Source of the DNA: a bacterium
Lineage (GTDB): Bacteria > UBA8248
Assembly: GCA_965221165.1 (NCBI GenBank)
Contig: CBDCRP010000003.1
Location: forward strand, 2,081,924-2,145,923
Reading direction: 5' to 3'
DNA: 64,000 nucleotides
In this document: one piece after another, positions 205 through 26,686 of the stretch
How the letters are laid out: each line of letters begins with the position of its first letter
Numbering within the stretch: the first letter of the stretch is position 1
Notes under the pieces: model-generated
What the model was told of the DNA's origin: nothing
Database searches by the model: none
The model's input: the letters and a program-made list of their open reading frames with translations, nothing else
Translations under genes and position numbers: made by a program

Positions 205-630
205 ATGTTCACGATTGCCAAGCGCACGGATTACGGCTTGATGGCGCTCTCCTACCTTGCGGAGCAGGAAGAGGACGAGGCCATTACCTCGCGGGCCATC
301 GCGTGCAGGTTCCACATTCCCGCCGAACTGCTTGCGAAGACGATGCAGCTACTGGCCAAAAACGGACTCGTGGAGTCGCGAAACGGGCCCAAGGGCGGCT
401 ATGTTCTCTCTCGCCGGCCGGAGACGATTTCTGTGGCGGAGGTCATTCGGGCCATCGAGGGGCCCATCGCCATGGCGACGTGCCAGGCAGACGGCGTCTC
501 GGGGTGTGAACAATACGAGAAATGTACGATTTTTTATCCCATGGAAAGGATCCAGAAAAAGGTGACCGACGTGCTTGAGGGAATGACCCTTCAGGACATG
601 GTGGGTACGCCTGCAGGAGAGATCAGATGA
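205..630 (+). CDS. iscR: Rrf2-family Fe-S cluster regulator IscR
   Basis: Rrf2 motif [11 protein letters not shown], three Cys (C-x6-C-x5-C), first gene of the isc operon. Confidence 0.88.
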
Positions 631-1847
631 GCTTGAAGTTCCCCATTTACATGGATTACCAGGCGACGACGCCCATGGACCCCCGGGTCCTCGATGCGAT
701 GAATCCCTACTTCGGCGATAAGTTCGGCAACGCCGCGAGCCGCAACCACAGCTTCGGCTGGGAGGCGGAGAAGGCCGTGGACGACGCGCGGGAGCAACTC
801 GCCGCCGTCATCGGCGCGGACCCGCGCGAGATCATCTTCACGAGCGGCGCCACGGAGTCGGACAACATGGCGCTCAAGGGCGTCGCCGAGATGTACAAGA
901 AAAAAGGCAACCACGTCATCACCTCGGCGATCGAGCACAAGGCCATCATCGATTCCGCCAAGCGGCTCGAGACGTGGGGCTTCGACGTCACCTACATCGA
1001 GCCTCCCGAGAACGGCATCACGACGACGGAGATGGTCGAGAACGCCATGCGCGAGGACACCATTCTGGTCTCCATCATGGCGGCGAACAACGAGGTCGGC
1101 GTGCTGAACCCCATCGCCGAGATCGGGGCGCTGTGCCGCGGGCGGGGCGTTCTTTTCCACACGGACGCCACGCAGGGCTACGGCAAGATTCCCATCGACG
1201 TGGACGAGATGAACATCGACCTGCTCTCGGCCACGGCCCACAAAATCTACGGGCCCAAGGGCGTGGGAATGATTTACGTGCGCAGGCGCAGGCCGCGCGT
1301 TCGCCTTTCGGCCATCATCGACGGCGGCGGCCATGAGCGGGGAATGCGCTCGGGCACGCTGAACGTCTCGGGCATCGTCGGTTTCGGCAAGGCGGCCGAG
1401 TTGTGCATGGAGGAGATGGAAGAAGAGAACATCCGCTTGACGAACCTGCGGGACAAGTTCAAGTCCATCATGTTCGAGAGCCTGGAGGAGGTGTACGTGA
1501 ACGGCCATGAAACAGAGCGCCTCTCGGGCAACCTCAACCTGAGCTTCCCCTACGTGGAGGGAGAATCGCTCATCATGGGGCTGAGCGACGTGGCCGTATC
1601 CTCCGGCTCCGCCTGCACTTCGGCAAGCCTGGAGCCGAGCTACGTGCTCAAGGCCATGGGCCGGGGCGATGAGTTGGCGCATTCGTCGATTCGCTTCGGG
1701 TTCGGGCGTTTTTCCACCGAAGAGGAGATGGAATACGTGGCCGAGAAGACGACGGACATCGTGATCCGGCTTCGCGAGATGAGCCCGCTCTATGAGATGG
1801 TGAAAGAGGGCGTCGATCTCTCCAAGGTGGAATGGCAGTCGCATTAA
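627..1847 (+). CDS. iscS: Cysteine desulfurase IscS
   Basis: [12 protein letters not shown] lysine in [17 protein letters not shown] catalytic loop. Confidence 0.97.
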
Positions 1848-1931
1848 ATGAGTGCTTTGAGCATATTATGATATAGGGGCTGCGGCTCACGGAAACCTGG
1901 AATCGCAGCGACCGGGAAAAGGAGAACAAAA

Positions 1932-2342
1932 ATGGCTTACAGCGAAAAGGTGGTCGATCACTACAACAACCCCCGCAACGTCGGCTCGCTCGACAAGAGC
2001 GATCAGACGGTGGGCACGGGCATCGTCGGCGCGCCCGAGTGCGGCGACGTGATGAAGCTGCAGATCAAGGTGGACGAAGGAGGCCTCATCGAGGACGCGA
2101 AGTTCAAGACGTTCGGCTGCGGAAGCGCCATCGCCTCGAGTTCTCTGGCCACCGAGTGGCTCAAGGGCAAGACGGTGGACGAGGCCGAGGAAATCAAGAA
2201 CACGCAGATCGTCGAGGAGCTCAACCTCCCGCCCGTGAAGATTCACTGTTCCGTGCTGGCGGAAGACGCCATCAAAACCGCGCTGAACGATTTTCGCGAG
2301 AAGAACGGGGTGCCGGTCGTCGAGCGCAAGGGCCACCACTAG
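1932..2342 (+). CDS. iscU: Fe-S scaffold IscU
   Basis: GAPECGDVM, TFGCGSAIASSS, LPPVKIHC motifs. Confidence 0.97.
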   Translation: MAYSEKVVDHYNNPRNVGSLDKSDQTVGTGIVGAPECGDVMKLQIKVDEGGLIEDAKFKTFGCGSAIASSSLATEWLKGKTVDEAEEIKNTQIVEELNLPPVKIHCSVLAEDAIKTALNDFREKNGVPVVERKGHH

Positions 2343-2373
2343 GAGCGGGCGACTCGCCGGCAGGGAGTAGGAA

Positions 2374-2730
2374 ATGGAAACCGCTGCGAAAAAACTGAGC
2401 CTCGAAGTGACCGACAAGGCGGTGGACAACATGCGCCGCTTCATGGAGAAAGAGGGCAAGCAAGGCCATGTCCTCCGCGTCGGCGTGAAGGGCGGGGGCT
2501 GCTCCGGTCTTTCTTACGTCCTTCAGTTCGAGGGCGAGGAGCGCATCAACCCGCTGATGGACGAGGTGTTCGAAAAAAACGGCATCCGGGTGGTCGTGGA
2601 CAAGAAAAGCCTTTTTTTCCTGGCAGGCACCACGCTGGAGTATGAAGACGGGCTGACGGGCAAGGGTTTTACGTTCAAAAACCCCAACGCACGTCAGTCC
2701 TGTGGTTGCGGGGAAAGCTTTTCCGCGTAA
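2374..2730 (+). CDS. iscA: A-type Fe-S carrier IscA/HesB
   Basis: GGGCSG and NPNA..SCGCGESF motifs. Confidence 0.95.
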   Translation: METAAKKLSLEVTDKAVDNMRRFMEKEGKQGHVLRVGVKGGGCSGLSYVLQFEGEERINPLMDEVFEKNGIRVVVDKKSLFFLAGTTLEYEDGLTGKGFTFKNPNARQSCGCGESFSA

Positions 2731-2835
2731 CGCAACCGGGATGAAACGCGCCGCGCCCATGCACCGTGGGATAGCGACGCGTTTTTCTTTTGAGTTCATG
2801 GCGCCCGGCGGTTCATGCGGGCCTGGAATCGCGCG

Positions 2836-3477
2836 ATGAGCGAAGCGACGAAAGAAGAAGTCTTTTCCATTTTCGATGAAGAGGGCGGAATAGCGCCCAT
2901 CCCCGCCCAGGTCGATCATTTCGCCTTGTTGGGGTTTCAGCGGAAATTCAGGGTCGACGCCGAAGCGCTGGAAGCCAGGTTCTACGAACTGAACCGGAAA
3001 CTCCACCCCGATTTTTTCATGGATGCGCCCGTCGCGGTCCGAATCCGGAGCCTGGATGCGACCGCCCGCATCAACGAGGCCTATCAGACGCTCAAGGATC
3101 CGATAGCGCGCGTGGTGTATCTGGTGGAACTCGAAACCGGAAAGCTCGAGGAGAACGAGAGGACGCCCCCGCCCGAGTTGTTCGAGGAGATATTCGAAGC
3201 CCAGGAGGCGGCGGCGGAGTTTCAGTGCTGTGCGGACCAGGAGGAAGCCGAGAGTTTGCGGGAGCGTCTCCATGCGGCCATGGGGTGTTTTTCGGTGCTT
3301 CGCCACGGCCAGCGCACGGCGCTCGACAGGCTGGGCGCCGCCTGGGACGGAGCGATGGACAAAAACGAACCCGCCCCGCCCGAGGTCGTGAAGAAGATGC
3401 GCTCCATTCTCGGGCAGAGAAACTACATCGAGAACACCCTCACGAGCCTCAAGCGCGCCTTGGAGGAGAGTGAATGA
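2836..3477 (+). CDS. hscB: Co-chaperone HscB
   Basis: J-domain HPD, INEAYQTLKDP; position between iscA and hscA; start uncertain (2815 or 2836). Confidence 0.9.
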   Translation: MSEATKEEVFSIFDEEGGIAPIPAQVDHFALLGFQRKFRVDAEALEARFYELNRKLHPDFFMDAPVAVRIRSLDATARINEAYQTLKDPIARVVYLVELETGKLEENERTPPPELFEEIFEAQEAAAEFQCCADQEEAESLRERLHAAMGCFSVLRHGQRTALDRLGAAWDGAMDKNEPAPPEVVKKMRSILGQRNYIENTLTSLKRALEESE

Positions 3478-5309
3478 GCCAAATCGTCGGGATCGACCTG
3501 GGCACCACGAACAGCCTGGTCGCCTCCGTTTCGGAAGGTGAGCCGACGATCCTCGCGCCCGAGGACGAGCGTGGCATCGTGCCCTCCGTGGTGAGCTTTC
3601 GCGCCGATCGTGTTCTCGTTGGCGAGGAGGCGCAGGATGAGCGCGTCTCCAACAGCCGAAACACCATCTTTTCCATCAAGCGATTCATGGGCAGAGGCTA
3701 TGAGGACGTGAAAGACGAGATGCGCCGCCTGCCCTTCGATGCGGACCCCGGGGAGAAGGAAGTCGTTCACGTGCTGGCCCGGGGGCGATCCTACAGCGCA
3801 CCCGAAGTAAGCGCCCTGGTGCTCAGGCGCCTGAAGGCGAGGGCCGAGAAGGCGCTGGGGCGGCCCGTGCTCAGGGCGGTGGTCACGGTTCCTGCGTATT
3901 TCAACGACGCGCAGCGCCAGGCCACGAAAGACGCGGGCAAGCTCGCGGGCCTGGAAGTGCTCCGCATCATCAACGAACCCACGGCGGCTTCCCTGGCCTA
4001 TGGCCTTCATGAGCGAAACCGAGGCGTCATCGCGGTGTACGACTTGGGGGGAGGCACGTTCGACATCTCGCTCCTTAGAATCAAGGACGGCGTGTTCGAG
4101 GTGCTCTCCACCGGGGGGGACACCCATCTGGGCGGAGATGATTTCGATCAGGCGATTTCCCTCAACATACAGCAGGAAATCCTTGGGGCGCATGGCGTTG
4201 ATTTGGGCGAAACGCCCGAGGCTCTGGCCGAACTCACGGTTTTGGCCGAACGGGTCAAGAAAACGCTGTCAGAGCGCGATTCGGCGGAATATGGGCTGGA
4301 AAATCCGGGCGGCATCCCGCTCGCCCACAAGAGCAGCCTCACGCGTGAGGAGATGGAGGCGCTTCTCGCGCCGATCGCCGAGCGGACGCTGGCGCCTTGT
4401 AGGCGCGCGCTCGCAGACGCGGGCCTCACGCCCGATGAGGTGCATGAGATCGTTCTGGTGGGCGGGTCCACCCGCATGCCCCTCATCCGCCGCATGGTGG
4501 AGGATTTGTTCCAAAAACGCCCGCATGTGGACCTGGACCCCGACGAGGTGGTGGCCCTGGGCGCCGCGGTGCAGGCGGACATCCTCGCGGGCGGCAGAAA
4601 GGACATGCTGCTCCTGGACGTGACGCCGCTTTCTCTGGGCATCGAGACCATGGGCGGCGTCATGGGCTGGATAATTCCCCGCAACACCACCATCCCCACG
4701 AGCGCCAAGGAAACGTACACCACCTTCAAGGACAACCAGACGGGGGTGGACGTTCACGTGCTCCAGGGAGAGCGCGAACTGGTGAAGGACAACCGCTCGC
4801 TCGCGCGTTTTCGCCTGGCGGTCGACCCCGCGCCGGCCGGTCTCGCCCGTGTGGAGGTGACGTTTCTGCTCGACGCCAACGGCATTCTAAACGTGACGGC
4901 CCGGGATCTCAGGAGCGGCAAGGCGTCCTCGGTGGAAGTCCAGCCCTCCTACGGGCTGACGGACGAGCAGGTCGAGCGCATGCTGATCGAATCTTTCGAA
5001 CACGCGGAACAGGATATCCGCTCCCGCCAGGTTCTGGACGCGAGAACCGAGGCGGAAACCATTCTCATGGCGACGGCCCGCGCGATGAACGACTACGCGG
5101 AGGATGCGGTCTCTCCCTCGGAGCGCGCCAAGATTCATGAAGCGGTGAGCGCACTCGAGGAGTCCTGCCGGGGGGAAGACCCGGGACGGATTCGGGATAT
5201 GGTCGACGCGCTGAATGAAGTCACGATGCCGCTCGCGGAGCGGATGATGGATAACGTTTTGAAATCGGCCTTGGAAAACAAGAGGGTGAGCGAAGCCCTC
5301 AAAGACTAA
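3474..5309 (+). CDS. hscA: Fe-S chaperone HscA (Hsp70 family)
   Basis: [24 protein letters not shown] motif typical of HscA; isc context. Confidence 0.93.
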
Positions 5310-5348
5310 AAGCCGCAAGCAGTTTGCGCGGGGCGCAGGGGAAGAAAA

Positions 5349-5705
5349 ATGGCGAAACTTTATTTTACGGAAGAGAAGCAGACGATTGACATTCATGTGG
5401 GCGAGAACATTCTCGAAACGGCCCTCGAAAACGGCGTCGACCTGGATCATGCCTGCGGCGGCGTGTGCGCTTGCTCGACGTGTCACGTGAAAATCAGGAA
5501 CGGCGCGGATCTCTTCAACGAATCCACCGAAGATGAGGAAGATCAGCTCGACGACGCGCGCGACGTGAACCTCGACAGCCGGCTGGCCTGCCAGGCGACG
5601 CTGGAGAGAGAAACCGACGAGGTCATCGAAGTGGAGGTGCCGTTCTGGAACGTGAACCTGGTGCAGGAGGGTCCGGATGCCGCCAGGGAGCAAAGCGCTC
5701 ATTAG
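5349..5705 (+). CDS. fdx: ISC 2Fe-2S ferredoxin
   Basis: HACGGVCACSTCH and SRLACQ motifs. Confidence 0.93.
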   Translation: MAKLYFTEEKQTIDIHVGENILETALENGVDLDHACGGVCACSTCHVKIRNGADLFNESTEDEEDQLDDARDVNLDSRLACQATLERETDEVIEVEVPFWNVNLVQEGPDAAREQSAH

Positions 5706-5730
5706 GAATTTCGAGCCGGGAGAGGAAGCG

Positions 5731-5949
5731 GTGGAAACATTTGGCTGGGAGGACGCCGAGGACATCGGCATCGTGTTGTACGAAAAATTTCCGAAGATCG
5801 ACCCGCTCACCGTTCGTTTCACCGATCTGCACGACTGGGTGTGCGAACTGGAGGAGTTCGAGGACGACCCGATGACCTCGACGGAGGGCAAGCTCGAGGC
5901 CATCCAGATGGCGTGGCTCGAGGAATACAAGGATGCGCAGGAGGCTTGA
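5731..5949 (+). CDS. iscX: Fe-S assembly protein IscX
   Basis: W.D...IG..L.E..P..DP..VRFTDL..WV..L..F.DDP....E..LEAIQMAW pattern; GTG start after GAGG RBS. Confidence 0.92.
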   Translation: METFGWEDAEDIGIVLYEKFPKIDPLTVRFTDLHDWVCELEEFEDDPMTSTEGKLEAIQMAWLEEYKDAQEA

Positions 5950-19447: not shown

Positions 19448-20818
19448 ATGACGATTGTGGAACAGATTGCGGCGTTCGCCGCGAACAGCAGTTTCGATGA
19501 TCTCACCGAAGATATGCGCGGACAGATAAAAACCCTCATGGTCGACACCATCGGCTGCGCCATCGGTTCGCTGGGCGAGGGGCCCGTTCGCTACCTGCGC
19601 GAGCAGGCGGATGATTTCGGCGGCGCGGCGCATTGCACGCTCATCGGCGGCGGCAAGAGCGCGCCCGACAGCGCTGCGTTCTACAACACCTCGCTGATCC
19701 GCTATCTCGATTTCAACGACGGCTTCATGGGGAAACTCGCCACCTCGCACCCGAGCGACAACGCGGGCGCCGTGATGGCGGCGGCCGAATACGCCGACGC
19801 GAGCGGGGCGGAGTTCATGACGGCCCTCGCCCTGGCCTATGAGGTGCAGTGCCGCCTGTGCGACAGCGCGCCCTATGAGAAAAGAGGGTTCGACCAGCCC
19901 ATGGCGGGCGCCTACGCCGTGGCGGCGGGCGCCTCGCGCGCCTTGGGATTGGACGCGGAGAAGACGGCCAACGCCGTCGCGCTCAGCGGCGTGCGCCAGA
20001 ATCCCCTGCTCATCACGCGCACGGGCGAGCTTTCCCACTGGAAGGGCTTCGCCTATGCGGCCGGCGGACACAGCGGGGTGCACTCGACGTTTCTGGCCAT
20101 GCGCGGGGTGACGGGCCCGCTTTTGTTGATGGAAGGCCCCCTGGGCGTTTTCGAGTCCGTGACGGGAGAGTTCGAGGTCGACTGGTCGGATACTTCCTTA
20201 AGCAAGATGCTCGAGATCAGCGTGAAGCGCTACAACGCAGGGCTTCACTCCCAGACGGCCATCGAGGGCGTCATCGACATGAAGCGCGAACACGGCTTCG
20301 GCCCCGAGGACATCGAGGAGGTCGAGATCGGGATTTATGAGCGCGCCTATTTCATCATGGGCGAGGGCAAGGCGGGGGCGCGCGAGCATGTGCTCAACAA
20401 GGAGACGGCGGACCACAGCCTGCCTTATGTGCTATCGGCGGCCATCATCGACGAGCAGGTTCTGCCCGCCCAGTACGAAGAAGAGAGAATCCGCGCGGAC
20501 GACGTGCAGACGCTCTTAAAGAAAGTGCGCACCACCAATTCCGATGAGATGACGGCCAGGTATCCCGCGCAATCACCCGTGCTGATTACCATCACGCTCA
20601 AGGACGGCACGGCCCACAAGCTGGACAAGCCCACCTGGGAGGGGCATTTCTCCACCCCGATGGGTTGGGGCACGGTGAACGAGAAGTTCGAGGCCTTGAG
20701 CGAAGCGCACACGGACGCCTCCTTGCGGGCGGAGATTGTGGACGCCGTCTCGAGGCTCGATTCGATCCGGATAAAAGAACTGACGGCCCTGCTGGAGAGG
20801 GTGAACACGCCCGGGTAG
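19448..20818 (+). CDS. MmgE/PrpD family protein (2-methylcitrate dehydratase-like)
   Basis: RYLDFND, HPSDN, RTGELSHWKG, ETADHSLPY motifs. Confidence 0.9.
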   Translation: MTIVEQIAAFAANSSFDDLTEDMRGQIKTLMVDTIGCAIGSLGEGPVRYLREQADDFGGAAHCTLIGGGKSAPDSAAFYNTSLIRYLDFNDGFMGKLATSHPSDNAGAVMAAAEYADASGAEFMTALALAYEVQCRLCDSAPYEKRGFDQPMAGAYAVAAGASRALGLDAEKTANAVALSGVRQNPLLITRTGELSHWKGFAYAAGGHSGVHSTFLAMRGVTGPLLLMEGPLGVFESVTGEFEVDWSDTSLSKMLEISVKRYNAGLHSQTAIEGVIDMKREHGFGPEDIEEVEIGIYERAYFIMGEGKAGAREHVLNKETADHSLPYVLSAAIIDEQVLPAQYEEERIRADDVQTLLKKVRTTNSDEMTARYPAQSPVLITITLKDGTAHKLDKPTWEGHFSTPMGWGTVNEKFEALSEAHTDASLRAEIVDAVSRLDSIRIKELTALLERVNTPG

Positions 20819-20911
20819 CGGAGATTTCCGCTTGGGGAAAAGCCGCCATATCCCGCGCCGCCTGAGCCGTGGCGCGGCGTCGATGGACGCTGGCTTTAAG
20901 GGAGATTGTCG

Positions 20912-21157
20912 ATGTCGGACTTGGAAGTGACGGTGTATTCATCATCCACGTGAGCGCCCTGTAAGGCGGTGAGAGAGTTTCTCTCCCATCATGGCGTGGC
21001 GTATACGGAAAAACTCGTCGATCAGGATGAACAGGCCCTGGAGGAATTATTCCAGAGGGCGGACATGCGGGCCACGCCCGTGATTTTCGTGGACGATGAG
21101 AAGGTGGTCGGCTTCGATCGGGCGAAGCTCGAAAAGCTGCTGGGGCTCGCCGCATGA
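20912..21157 (+). CDS. Putative selenoprotein: glutaredoxin/NrdH-like redoxin with UxxC (U-A-P-C), 81 aa
   Basis: AAGGGAG RBS, ATG 20912, MSDLEVTVYSSST-[TGA 20951-53]-APCKAVREFL...ATPVIFVDDEKVVGFD; the ORF track calls only the post-TGA part, which lacks strand beta1 and the active site. Confidence 0.88.
20968..20988 (+). promoter_or_regulatory. Putative bacterial SECIS hairpin for TGA 20951
   Basis: GAGAGA-GTT-TCTCTC stem-loop (20971-20985); loop starts with G, 23 nt after the UGA. Confidence 0.55.
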
Positions 21158-21453
21158 GCGAAAACCGCAGGACCCTCGCCTGTCCCGGCTGAGGGCAACG
21201 CATACCCGTCCCGTGGGATGCGAAAACGCGCGATCTGGTCGATTGCGAGAATTGTGCGGGGGTGAGATTCCGCTTGGGCCGAGCGGAGGGGGCGGAGGTT
21301 CTCACTATCGTGCAGATGGTTTCATGCCCCCTTTGTGGTGAATACATACCGGTGGATGAGGACACCCCCGCAGGTTCCGTTTTCGAGCACGACGGAAAAA
21401 AACTGCGCCTCGATAAGGAATTCGGCGCATTCGTCCTGGCGCCCGAGGAGTAG
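21154..21453 (+). CDS. Putative selenoprotein: tandem LysW-like zinc-ribbon protein with CxxU, 99 aa
   Basis: ATG overlaps the upstream stop (ATGA); MSENRRTLACPG-[TGA 21190-92]-GQRIPVP..DLVDCENC...VSCPLCGEYIPV...LAPEE, in frame with the tracked ORF 21262-21453. Confidence 0.8.
21199..21222 (+). promoter_or_regulatory. Putative bacterial SECIS hairpin for TGA 21190
   Basis: CGCAT-a-CCC-[GTCCCGT]-GGG-ATGCG; G-led loop 15 nt after the UGA. Confidence 0.5.
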
Positions 21454-21575
21454 GGGCGCGATTGGATTCAGGGAAGAAATTCCGAGGTCTGTTTCCTTCG
21501 CGGTGAGTTGTTGATAGAGTATCGGTGCGTTCAGCGAGAGCGCATCTGCAAGAAAGGATTGCACGGGAGCATGTG

Positions 21576-21968
21576 ATGGCTTCTCGACCACAGGCCACTA
21601 TACCGCTGGATCACGCCGACAAATTGAATCGGGACTTGCTCGCGCAATTGGAGGAGCTTGAAAAAACTCCCGAGGAGGATCGTTGGCCCGAAGCGGTGTG
21701 GCCTACCGCTCAAGCGTTTAAGGATGCGGAAATTTTCGTTCGGAAGCTGCCGCTGGGCTCGATTCCCATGCCCTATATAGGGCTGGCCGATGACGGGGAA
21801 GTCAATTTTCTATGGAAAAAAGATGGTGTTCATGTTGATCTTGGGTTCTATGGAACGCGTACTTATACTTACTTTGCGCACGGTAAAGATGGACACCCAA
21901 TCGACGGCGAAGATATTCCGGCATCCGAAGGATTGCCTTCCGAAATCGTAGAACTGTTCACGGTCTGA
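21576..21968 (+). CDS. Hypothetical acidic protein, possible antitoxin/immunity partner
   Basis: GGGAG RBS before ATG 21576; P.I...DGEV.F.W motif; AT-richer composition. Confidence 0.6.
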   Translation: MASRPQATIPLDHADKLNRDLLAQLEELEKTPEEDRWPEAVWPTAQAFKDAEIFVRKLPLGSIPMPYIGLADDGEVNFLWKKDGVHVDLGFYGTRTYTYFAHGKDGHPIDGEDIPASEGLPSEIVELFTV

Positions 21969-21975
21969 TACAACC

Positions 21976-22494
21976 TTGCAAGCTCCTTCTCCACATCTTG
22001 ACGAGGAAAAATGCGCCGCGCCGGGAATCTCTCCCGGGGTTGTCGAGGACGAGGAGTTTCTTCTTCGAGAGATGTTCAACCCACAGCATGTCCAGGATGG
22101 GGAAGTGCTTGAGACTGCGATACCAGCAAAGGACCTTTGGAAGAAAGGATTTTCTGTTCATCGGATGAAGTACGTTTCAGTTGAGTTCATAAAAAATGCG
22201 GTCGAAGTACGCCTGTCTCGTCCCAGAAAAGGCGAACCCTGGAAAGACGAGGGTGTGGCGAAGCTACAAACGCTATCTGTACGACAGCTTCTTACAGATG
22301 ACGACAAAAAGGCGTTTGTTGTTATTGATACGGCCACGGAAGACAACCCCGGACATGCCAGCATATATATGGCCGAGTATATTGCAGAGCCTAAAAAAGG
22401 CGAAAGACATGCAAGGAGATTCAGGCATTTGCTTCTGGATATTCTTCAAAACAGAATGACCATAGATGAGGCGTATGCCGGTGCGATCGGTTAG
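21976..22494 (+). CDS. Hypothetical protein with possible ADP-ribosyltransferase-like (Tse2/RES-like) fold
   Basis: LLR...P, GFSVHR and D....NPGHASI motifs (R-S-H arrangement); AT-richer composition. Confidence 0.5.
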   Translation: MQAPSPHLDEEKCAAPGISPGVVEDEEFLLREMFNPQHVQDGEVLETAIPAKDLWKKGFSVHRMKYVSVEFIKNAVEVRLSRPRKGEPWKDEGVAKLQTLSVRQLLTDDDKKAFVVIDTATEDNPGHASIYMAEYIAEPKKGERHARRFRHLLLDILQNRMTIDEAYAGAIG

Positions 22495-22548
22495 TCATTT
22501 GGAGCAACATTGTATATAATCCCTTTTCCTTAGTTCTGGAGATTCGTT

Positions 22549-23505
22549 TTGGCAGAACGTGATTTCGAAATCATCATCATCGGGGCCGGGCCTGCGGGGC
22601 TGACGGCGGGGCTTTATACGGCGCGTTCCAAGCTGAACGTGGTCTGCTATGAAAAACTCGCGCCCGGCGGCGAGATTCTCAACACCGAGCACGTGGAAGA
22701 CTACCCGGGCTTCGAACTGGTCGGCGGGCAGGAACTGGCGGCCAAGTTCACCGATCACGCCATGAAGTTCGGCTTGCGGATCGAGATGGAAGAAGTCTCC
22801 GAAGTGAGAAAGGACGGGGATGATTTCCTCGTCGTCACCGACATGGGCGAGCGCCGCTGCGGGGCGGTGATTTATACGCCCGGCGGCTATCCGAGAAAGC
22901 TCGCGATTCCGGGCGAGGAGAAATACGCGGGCAAGGGCGTCAGCTACTGCGCGCTTTGCGACGGCGCGTTTTTTCAGGATGAGGTGATCACCGTCGTGGG
23001 CGGCGGGAACAGCGCCGTGGAAGAGGGGCAGTTCCTCACGAAATACGGCACGAAGGTCTACCTCATTCACCGCCGCGATCAGTTCCGCGCCCATGCGGTC
23101 TTGATGGACAGGATTCGCGAGAATCCCAAGATGGAGATCATCACCGACCACGTGGCGGAAGAGGTGGTGGGCGATGACAGGGAGATGAAGAAGCTGCGCA
23201 TCAAGAATGTGAAGACAGGTGAGACGCAGGAACTCGACGCCACGGGCCTGTTCGTTTTCATCGGTTTTATTCCGAACACGGATTTGATAAAAGATCACGT
23301 AGAAAAGGACGATGCCGGCTTTATCCTCACGGATCAGAACATGGAGACGAATGTTCCGGGCCTGTTCGTGGCCGGTGATTGCAGAAGCCAGTTGATTCGC
23401 CAGATCACCAACGCATCGGGCGATGCGACGACGGCGGCGGTGGCGGCCGAGAAATATCTCGAAGCCCAGGTGGAGGCCAGGAAACAGGCCGCGGCGGCTT
23501 CCTAG
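22549..23505 (+). CDS. trxB: Thioredoxin-disulfide reductase
   Basis: GAGPAG, GVSYCALCDG, GGGNSA, HRRD, GLFVAGD motifs. Confidence 0.95.
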   Translation: MAERDFEIIIIGAGPAGLTAGLYTARSKLNVVCYEKLAPGGEILNTEHVEDYPGFELVGGQELAAKFTDHAMKFGLRIEMEEVSEVRKDGDDFLVVTDMGERRCGAVIYTPGGYPRKLAIPGEEKYAGKGVSYCALCDGAFFQDEVITVVGGGNSAVEEGQFLTKYGTKVYLIHRRDQFRAHAVLMDRIRENPKMEIITDHVAEEVVGDDREMKKLRIKNVKTGETQELDATGLFVFIGFIPNTDLIKDHVEKDDAGFILTDQNMETNVPGLFVAGDCRSQLIRQITNASGDATTAAVAAEKYLEAQVEARKQAAAAS

Positions 23506-23527
23506 GGTTCAAGGCGAGGAGAGGGAA

Positions 23528-24076
23528 ATGGAGTTCACCAGGGGGCTTCGGAAGTTTTTTCTCTGGGATATCGTGAAGGGCATGTCCGCCACACTGCGGC
23601 ACATGTTCAAAAAACCCGTCACGCTTCAATACCCGACGGAGCGCTGGGAGCCGCCCGAGCGTTATCGGGGCTTTTTGGGCTTGACGCGCGATTTCAAGAC
23701 GGGCGAGGAGCTTTGCATCGGCTGTCTGAACTGCGAGAAGGCCTGTCCGGTCGACTGCATCACCATCGTCACGGCGGGCAAGGGCCGCGAGATGTACGCC
23801 AAGGAGTTCTACATCGACTACATGCGGTGCATGTACTGCGGGCTTTGCGTGGAGGCGTGCCCCACGACGCCTAAATCCATCGTCCACACCCACCAGTACG
23901 AGACGACCGGCTATTTCCGCGAAGATCTCGTCTACGAGAAAGAGCGCCTCTACGACGTCTGGGAAAAAGAGATGAACTACACCGGCCCCCGTCCCTGGGG
24001 CAAGCTGTTCGGCCTAAGGAACCAGGAGGCGGACACACGGCCCGAAACCCCTGCCGAGACGGCGCCCGCCGAATAG
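23528..24076 (+). CDS. nuoI: NADH-quinone oxidoreductase subunit I-like 2x[4Fe-4S] protein
   Basis: VTLQYP.E, RYRG, CIGCLNCEKACP, F.IDY.RCMYCGLCVEACP. Confidence 0.85.
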   Translation: MEFTRGLRKFFLWDIVKGMSATLRHMFKKPVTLQYPTERWEPPERYRGFLGLTRDFKTGEELCIGCLNCEKACPVDCITIVTAGKGREMYAKEFYIDYMRCMYCGLCVEACPTTPKSIVHTHQYETTGYFREDLVYEKERLYDVWEKEMNYTGPRPWGKLFGLRNQEADTRPETPAETAPAE

Positions 24077-26308: not shown

Positions 26309-26686
26309 CTAGATTCCCAGTTCGTTGAACACGCGCAGCGACTCATCCGTCGCGCCCACGGCGTTGGGAGCGCCCGCGTAGATCGCGCACACCATGATGA
26401 TCTCCTGAATATCCTCTTTCGTCATGCCGATGCGAAGCGCCGCCTTGGCGTGGTACCCGAACTCCCTGTCCCGGCCCATGGCGCACAGGACGGAGAGGAT
26501 CACCGTCTCGCGGGTCTTGTCGTCGATGCCGTCTCGCGCGTAGAGATCGCCGTACACGGCTTCGGTGACGAACTGCGCGAACGCGGGACTCGCCTTCGCG
26601 AAAGCCTGGCGCCTCTCCTCTCCTTCCTCGCCGAAGATCCTCGCGCGGGTTCTCAGTCCTCTCTCGAGACGTGTTTCTTCGCTCAT
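26309..26686 (-). CDS. Carboxymuconolactone decarboxylase family protein
   Basis: YGDLYAR.GID.KTRE, H...ALR.G, YAG.P motifs. Confidence 0.88.
   Translation of the reverse strand: MSEETRLERGLRTRARIFGEEGEERRQAFAKASPAFAQFVTEAVYGDLYARDGIDDKTRETVILSVLCAMGRDREFGYHAKAALRIGMTKEDIQEIIMVCAIYAGAPNAVGATDESLRVFNELGI

Follow-up and report, generated by a model that had tools for sequence, protein, structure and literature searches.

A probable selenocysteine-containing redoxin gene, shortened in public annotation, in a bacterium of the UBA8248 lineage

The redoxin locus

We analysed a window of 64,000 nucleotides from a bacterium of the GTDB lineage UBA8248 (GenBank assembly GCA_965221165.1, contig CBDCRP010000003.1, forward-strand positions 2,081,924 to 2,145,923); positions below are those of the window unless another contig is named. 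At 20912-21157 lies a gene that very probably encodes a small redoxin of the glutaredoxin fold, with selenocysteine (Sec, U) at the first position of a U-A-P-C active site (Table 1). The frame runs from the ATG through MSDLEVTVYSSST to an in-frame TGA (20951-20953), continues with APCKAVREFLSHHG... and closes at a terminal TGA (21155-21157). Read through the first TGA, the product is 81 amino acids (aa) long and starts MSDLEVTVYSSSTUAPCKAV..., with U-A-P-C at residues 14-17, T-P at 55-56 and V-G-F at 66-68.

A first-pass annotation of this DNA had proposed a ribosome-binding site and an ATG at 20912, a TGA at 20951-20953 falling on the first Cys of a CxxC motif, and TP and VGF motifs downstream; direct reading of the sequence bears out each of these. 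It had also held that gene callers cut the gene to 62 aa without an active site, which is what we found: a plain list of open reading frames (ORFs) gives 20969-21157, and the closest database proteins are without exception N-terminally truncated calls (14 of 14; lengths 55-72 aa, with 62 aa in 11 cases). Reading through the TGA corrects a systematic annotation error that leaves the public entries without their active site. A promoter and terminator scan of 20600-23700 gave nothing informative near the redoxin gene, and one terminator-like site inside coding sequence.

Table 1. Features of the predicted redoxin gene and of the genes around it
Feature	Position	Strand	Basis
Shine-Dalgarno-like AAGGGAGA	20898-20905	+	read from sequence; 6-nt spacer to ATG
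Full coding sequence of predicted Sec-redoxin, 81 codons/81 aa, U14	20912-21157	+	translation; PF00462; AlphaFold model
Start codon ATG	20912-20914	+	read from sequence
In-frame TGA, codon 14, predicted Sec, first position of U-A-P-C	20951-20953	+	aligned with first Cys of CxxC in Cys homologues
TGT, resolving Cys17 of UxxC	20960-20962	+	alignment column C17 invariant
Pro56 codon, conserved proline of thioredoxin fold (cis state presumed), just before strand 57-60	21077-21079	+	P56 invariant; model secondary structure
Terminal stop TGA	21155-21157	+	read from sequence
Shortened 62-aa GTG ORF, artefact of UGA taken as stop	20969-21157	+	plain ORF list; 62-aa database entries
Predicted bacterial SECIS, extended hairpin from the base after UGA	20954-21002	+	fold and conservation
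Apical stem-loop GAGAGA / GUU / UCUCUC	20971-20976 / 20977-20979 / 20980-20985	+	fold; six pairs in 26/26 Sec forms
MmgE/PrpD-family gene	19448-20818		upstream of redoxin
g2, 99 aa, LysW-like zinc ribbon	21154-21453	+	PF21344, 28.8 bits (cut-off 27); start overlaps redoxin stop (ATGA, 4 nt)
g2 in-frame TGA, C-P-G-U	21190-21192	+	translation
Two ORFs, 147 aa and 172 aa	21525-21968, 21976-22494	+	no significant Pfam or NCBIfam match
Thioredoxin-disulfide reductase (TrxR)	22549-23505	+	TIGR01292, 361.5 bits (cut-off 343.45)

Protein family and fold

Family searches were run with C in place of U. The read-through protein matches the Pfam family Glutaredoxin (PF00462) with E = 1.1e-15 and 58 bits, against a cut-off of 22.9. 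Among NCBIfam models the YruB family TIGR02196 comes first with 78.2 bits, short of its cut-off of 88.55. The first-pass annotation had called the protein glutaredoxin/NrdH-like, and the first half of that name stands while the second does not: the NrdH-redoxin model TIGR02194 scores 50.6 bits against 85.75, the U-A-P-C site is not the C-[VIM]-Q-C (such as C-V-Q-C) of NrdH, and the neighbours are a PrpD-like gene, the short gene g2 and the thioredoxin-disulfide reductase (TrxR), with no nrd operon. We also rejected the UXX-star selenoproteins (NF041212 and relatives), a name that means Sec three residues from the C-terminus; their models score 24-45 bits, each under its own cut-off (NF041212 itself 44.7 against 66), and the Sec proposed here is residue 14 of 81.

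A structure was predicted from a 17-row alignment consisting of the window protein, read-through translations of six loci, and the full-length Cys homologues described below (10 of 11). The AlphaFold model has a mean predicted local distance difference test (pLDDT) score of 93.5 and a predicted template modelling (pTM) score of 0.82. Its elements are strands at 6-10, 32-35, 57-60 and 63-66 and helices at 15-26, 40-50 and 70-76; in the model this beta-alpha-beta-alpha-beta-beta-alpha order matches the thioredoxin fold in its glutaredoxin form. Helix 1 has residue 14 at its N-terminus, and Pro56 comes just before strand 3. A Foldseek search of the Protein Data Bank (PDB) returned a probability of 1.00 to glutaredoxin and BC3987 structures, with BC3987 and 7C10 at the top. 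The redoxin is nearest to the YruB/Cp9/cGrx1 group of glutaredoxin-fold redoxins.

Conservation of the in-frame TGA

A word-indexed protein search with the redoxin gave 34 matches, 18 of which were used in a residue comparison. The closest 14 are the truncated calls, at 66-88% identity. The next 11, at 38-45% identity, are full-length proteins of 77-84 aa with a C-x-x-C site, and they align residue for residue with V-T-V-Y-S-x-x-x-U-x-x-C of the redoxin. In the 17-row alignment the column of codon 14 is invariantly C or U.

Related loci were then sought at the DNA level in one genome per species, which gave 31 loci. The aligned codon is TGA in 25 of them (20 close relatives, two Bacillota, one Desulfobacteraceae and two Terriglobia) and TGT or TGC in the other six (one Chloroflexi, four from Woesebacteria or the Patescibacteria group, and one uncultured bacterium), so that the Cys/TGA pairing at residue 14, which the first-pass annotation had named as a check, is present. 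The 20 close relatives are 60-87% identical to the redoxin; seven are titled Nitrospinota or Nitrospinaceae and the others simply 'bacterium'. Across the phylum, 43 of 51 species genomes, the source genome included, match the redoxin at E <= 1e-8. All 44 matches hold an in-frame TGA (42 a single TGA, one a TGA and a TAG, and one two TGAs), counted as a TGA anywhere within the match and not position by position.

The DNA on either side of the TGA varies in the manner of coding sequence. Among the window and the 20 close loci (21 sequences), the nine codons before the TGA have 5, 4 and 9 variable columns at codon positions 1, 2 and 3, and the 36 codons after it have 14, 16 and 31. The peptide (E/K)V(T/I)(V/L)(Y/F)(S/A)S before the TGA is kept, with its Val and Ser codons varying synonymously. 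Protein-coding constraint is therefore seen on both sides of the UGA.

The predicted SECIS hairpin

In bacteria, the selenocysteine insertion sequence (SECIS) lies just 3' of the UGA, and recoding by SelB with Sec-tRNA(Sec) is the established route to selenocysteine. The 60 nt from the UGA onward fold into one extended hairpin of -21.3 kcal/mol, the lower stem of which starts at the base after the UGA; the apical stem starts 17 nt and its loop 23 nt after the TGA. The 66-nt stretch 20945-21010 has a folding energy of -26.1 kcal/mol (z = -2.66), matched by three of 200 shuffles.

Published rules for bacterial SECIS elements, as excerpted from PMC13188914, call for an apical loop of 3-9 nt with a G in its first two positions, a 4-16 bp upper stem, a distance of 16-37 nt from UGA to loop, and a minimum free energy of -7.5 kcal/mol or lower. 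The hairpin agrees with all four: its GUU loop is 3 nt long with G first, the stem has 6 bp, the distance is 23 nt and the energy is given above. The GAGAGA-GTT-TCTCTC hairpin with a G-led loop 23 nt after the TGA, described in the first-pass annotation, is thus confirmed. A scan of the whole window at Rfam gathering thresholds gave no matches, so no curated SECIS family fits.

Conservation of the hairpin was measured in an ungapped alignment of 26 Sec forms (19 distinct rows). The six apical pairs form in all 26, with the consensus GARAGA-GUU-UCUYUC. One of them is A-U in 18 forms and G-C in eight (11 and 8 of the distinct rows) and is never broken. Taken over all 18 pairs of the structure, the share of paired cells is 81.6%; shuffles give 77.5%, and none of 500 shuffles reaches the observed value; with the partners slid, 33-63% of cells pair. 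The apical hairpin falls on the codons for the conserved (K/R)-E-F-L-S motif and is common to Sec forms of different phyla. A (K/R)EFLS-encoded SECIS recognisable across several phyla makes a handy search signature.

Selenocysteine machinery of the genome

The source genome comprises three contigs and is 96.3% complete with 8.5% contamination. It encodes SelB (383.8 bits), SelA (564.2 bits) and SelD (329.8 bits), all above curated cut-offs, and a tRNA-Sec with 75.9 bits (gathering score 47), which ARAGORN calls tRNA-SeC with anticodon tca. The full set that the first-pass annotation had suggested looking for (selA, selB, selC and selD) is thereby accounted for. No tRNA was found in a scan of the window, the tRNA-Sec lying elsewhere in the genome. 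The selD gene is itself a selenoprotein gene, with a single in-frame TGA in ...GG*GSK... (C2:975065-976027, minus strand), and directly adjoins one of two MsrA genes (C2:974487-974927).

Alternative explanations

Several points weigh against the selenoprotein reading. Selenium incorporation is a prediction from sequence. The TIGR02196 score lies under its cut-off, which leaves the protein outside formal equivalog membership, and the phylum count places the TGA within each match only. In the hairpin, the lower helix (helix 1) has 74.3% of its cells paired and is poorly kept beyond close relatives, and two of five covariation measures ('pairs with a change on both sides' and 'further pair types') do not rise above shuffles. 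The covarying pair joins the second base of a Lys/Arg codon to the third base of a Leu codon, where the change is synonymous; because the relatives are kin, its A-U/G-C swap may go back to just one or two events in evolution. Six of six Cys forms lack the hairpin at the corresponding place; as these forms come from A+T-rich genomes, their weaker folds make an imperfect control.

These points have to be set beside three readings in which residue 14 is not selenocysteine at all. The real gene might be the 62-aa ORF from GTG 20969, with the 13 upstream codons and the TGA forming an untranslated leader and the product a fragment without an active site. The ORF listing gives this frame, and the 14 closest database entries are called alike. 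According to the model, however, strand 1 and the CxxC fall outside the 62-aa product, which therefore cannot form the fold. The upstream peptide is conserved, shows third-position variation and aligns with full-length Cys homologues, and a good Shine-Dalgarno sequence stands before ATG 20912 (judged for that ATG alone). We consider the short ORF very unlikely to be the gene. It is extremely unlikely that the UGA is reassigned to Trp or Gly, or read through unspecifically. Although reassignment occurs in some uncultured lineages, TGA is a normal stop here: it ends 20 of the 42 non-overlapping ORFs of at least 200 aa in the window, and the redoxin gene is itself among the genes so ending, which does not fit a changed code. 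Moreover, codon 14 aligns with a catalytic Cys rather than with Trp or Gly, and the genome has the full Sec apparatus to go with a suitably placed hairpin. For an ordinary CxxC redoxin to have become a pseudogene (Cys to stop), or to look like one through a mistake in sequencing or assembly, would take little, TGA being one base from TGT and TGC, but this reading is effectively refuted by conservation. The TGA recurs in 25 independent assemblies with at least four phylum labels and in all 44 matches from 43 genomes of the phylum, and the frames on either side of it are intact. Contigs from two runs of one sample cover 20850-21018 with zero differing letters; the sample may be the source itself, and these contigs are therefore not independent confirmation. 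In a contig from another study the match begins exactly at the TGA, and the loose letters before it encode the ...VYSSTF of the relatives. No difference at 20951-20953 appears among the contig matches listed, and we see no sign of the sequencing error that the first-pass annotation had allowed for.

Proposed mechanism and reductant

For a Sec-redoxin, the established pathway suggests that SelB with Sec-tRNA(Sec) would bind the hairpin directly after the UGA, and that Sec would be inserted without termination. The selenolate of U14, at the N-terminus of helix 1, would then attack an oxidised substrate, and Cys17 would resolve the mixed intermediate to give an intramolecular selenylsulfide. The oxidised redoxin would be re-reduced by the adjacent NADPH-dependent TrxR rather than by glutathione (GSH). 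Possible substrates are a peroxiredoxin or a methionine sulfoxide reductase, by analogy with relatives that have been characterised, or else g2, which is co-translated with the redoxin.

We lean toward TrxR as the reductant, although with limited confidence. The competing possibility is a true Sec-redoxin recycled, as a classical glutaredoxin, by a glutathione-like thiol of low molecular weight. In its favour, the Pfam family is Glutaredoxin, and the closest solved relative, cGrx1, is described in the excerpted text of PMC7642778 as GSH-recycled. A GCS2-family ligase is present in the genome, so that a gamma-glutamylcysteine-type thiol may serve. The case for TrxR is further tempered by the fact that this enzyme is the sole match above the TIGR01292 cut-off in the genome, and hence a housekeeping enzyme, and by a canonical thioredoxin encoded on another contig. 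On the other side, a search of the 96% complete genome found no glutathione synthetase gshB (best 75.5 bits, cut-off 299) or glutathione reductase (best 268 bits, cut-off 556) above cut-off, and no match to the GshA-type gamma-glutamylcysteine ligase PF04262. Linkage to TrxR is conserved: in 19 of 20 close loci the reductase gene follows the redoxin on its downstream side. The classical glutaredoxin site is C-P-[YFW]-C, as against U-A-P-C here, and the x-Pro dipeptide (A-P, or P-P in a deeper clade of the family) resembles that of thioredoxin and BC3987 and not the C-P-[YW]-C given for glutaredoxins in excerpts of PMC3720550. Recycling by a thiol is thus possible, if on balance unlikely.

Comparison with known redoxins

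The best solved relative by sequence is cGrx1, the dithiol glutaredoxin 1 of Clostridium oremlandii (PDB 7C10; E = 1.2e-18). It resembles the redoxin in fold and length, with 52% identity, a template modelling (TM) score of 0.86 and a root-mean-square deviation (rmsd) of 1.1 A, and both proteins carry the motifs V(K/R)EFLS and VVGFDR(A/D)K. As excerpted, PMC7642778 states that cGrx1 is natively a selenoprotein, that its site is U(or C)PXC and that its Sec was changed to Cys for crystallography; Sec at the first position of U-x-x-C is thus common to the two. The active-site dipeptide differs, being A-P in the redoxin and P-H in cGrx1, as do the phylum and the gene neighbourhood. cGrx1 is the proposed reductant of a Sec-containing MsrA, whereas the two MsrA genes of the source genome have no in-frame stop.

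Cp9 (YruB) of Clostridium pasteurianum is the founder of TIGR02196, the family that gave the best NCBIfam score, though one under its cut-off. According to the excerpts of PMC3720550, which cites Reynolds et al. 2002, it is a small glutaredoxin-fold redoxin whose gene neighbours that of a TrxR-type flavoenzyme, and it carries electrons from this enzyme to a peroxiredoxin. Cp9 uses Cys and sits between reductase and peroxiredoxin; the redoxin uses a predicted Sec. A scan of 47 ORFs at positions 1-41316 of the window turned up no peroxiredoxin, and neither a peroxiredoxin encoded there nor a Sec-containing MsrA was retained as a linked substrate.

A third relative, BC3987 of Bacillus cereus (PDB 3ZIJ), has a TM score of 0.84-0.85, an rmsd of 1.0 A and 41-42% identity. 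It shares with the redoxin the strand [IV]-x-[ILV]-[YF]-[ST] before the site, and its C-P-P-C resembles the U-P-P-C of the deeper clade. Excerpts of PMC3720550 treat BC3987 as a thioredoxin and describe both it and Cp9 as TrxR-type redoxins; BC3987 is a Cys protein, unlinked to TrxR in its own genome. NrdH of E. coli (PDB 1H75) is also a small glutaredoxin fold (TM score 0.78) with thioredoxin-like, TrxR-dependent behaviour. It is only 25% identical to the redoxin, which has neither C-V-Q-C nor nrd genes alongside.

Selenoprotein glutaredoxins are not new. A table of PMC13188914 lists glutaredoxin (PF00462, UxxC) as a known prokaryotic selenoprotein family, and tables of PMC1794560 record Sec-glutaredoxins in Geobacter (e.g. 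Geobacter sulfurreducens), Moorella and Alkaliphilus by 2006. The excerpted parts of these two papers name no Nitrospinota-type member, and the string 'Nitrospin' is absent from the review PMC13188914. What sets the present Sec form apart from the surveyed proteins is its apparent fixation throughout a phylum and its coupling to a second candidate selenoprotein gene. The BSepDB paper of 2026 (PMC13326102, in excerpt) counts genomes labelled Nitrospinota, which carry 48-54 selenoprotein genes, among the bacteria richest in them, and the word 'glutaredoxin' is absent from its main text. We take the redoxin for a mis-annotated new member of a selenoprotein family already described; its lineage had been noted before as rich in Sec, and gains with it a phylum-wide, apparently fixed Sec-glutaredoxin.

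The companion gene and its neighbourhood

The start of g2 overlaps the redoxin stop, and in the 20 close loci g2 is present in 14, with cut-down remnants visible in two of the other six; 14 of the 20 have the PrpD-like gene on the upstream side. The 147-aa and 172-aa ORFs occur in only eight of the 20 and are 59-88% identical, much below the conservation of their neighbours, which gives them the look of a two-gene cassette inserted into an older redoxin-g2-TrxR unit. After TrxR come a NuoI-like ferredoxin gene and then a quinolinate phosphoribosyltransferase-like gene.

From its sequence, g2 is a second unannotated selenoprotein candidate. The first knuckle of its zinc ribbon, C-P-G-U, carries TGA in the window as well as in 12 of 14 related loci, and Cys in the other two. 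Another knuckle Cys of the window (C-x-N-C) is replaced by TGA (C-x-N-U) in nine of the 14 loci. The relatives of g2 in databases are 12 unnamed proteins, mostly 63-aa shortened calls. The two genes may form, with TrxR, a phylum-wide selenium relay in which electrons pass from NADPH through TrxR and the Sec-redoxin to g2, with g2 an undescribed selenoprotein family, translationally coupled to a redoxin dedicated to it; we regard this scheme as doubtful. Were it true, the task of the Sec-redoxin would be to reduce or load a selenium-containing site of g2, either metal or redox, and not general thiol homeostasis. Of the four cysteines in the g2 knuckles, one or two would be Sec, with C-P-G-U fixed in most relatives. 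As a coupled, unannotated zinc-ribbon selenoprotein candidate, g2 is a more interesting lead than the redoxin itself.

Three further observations concern the surroundings. About 24 kb before the window, at C3:2058032-2058313 (minus strand), there is a thioredoxin-like match with one in-frame TGA (TIGR01068, 39.9 bits, below cut-off), possibly another thioredoxin-fold selenoprotein. Within the window, a carboxymuconolactone decarboxylase/AhpD-like ORF occupies 26309-26686 on the minus strand (PF02627, 67.3 bits), and survey tables give Sec forms of the PF02627 family. Positions 205-5949 hold an ISC-type cluster with Rrf2/IscR-like, NifU_N/IscU, Hsp70/HscA-like, Fer2 and Fe-S_assembly proteins.

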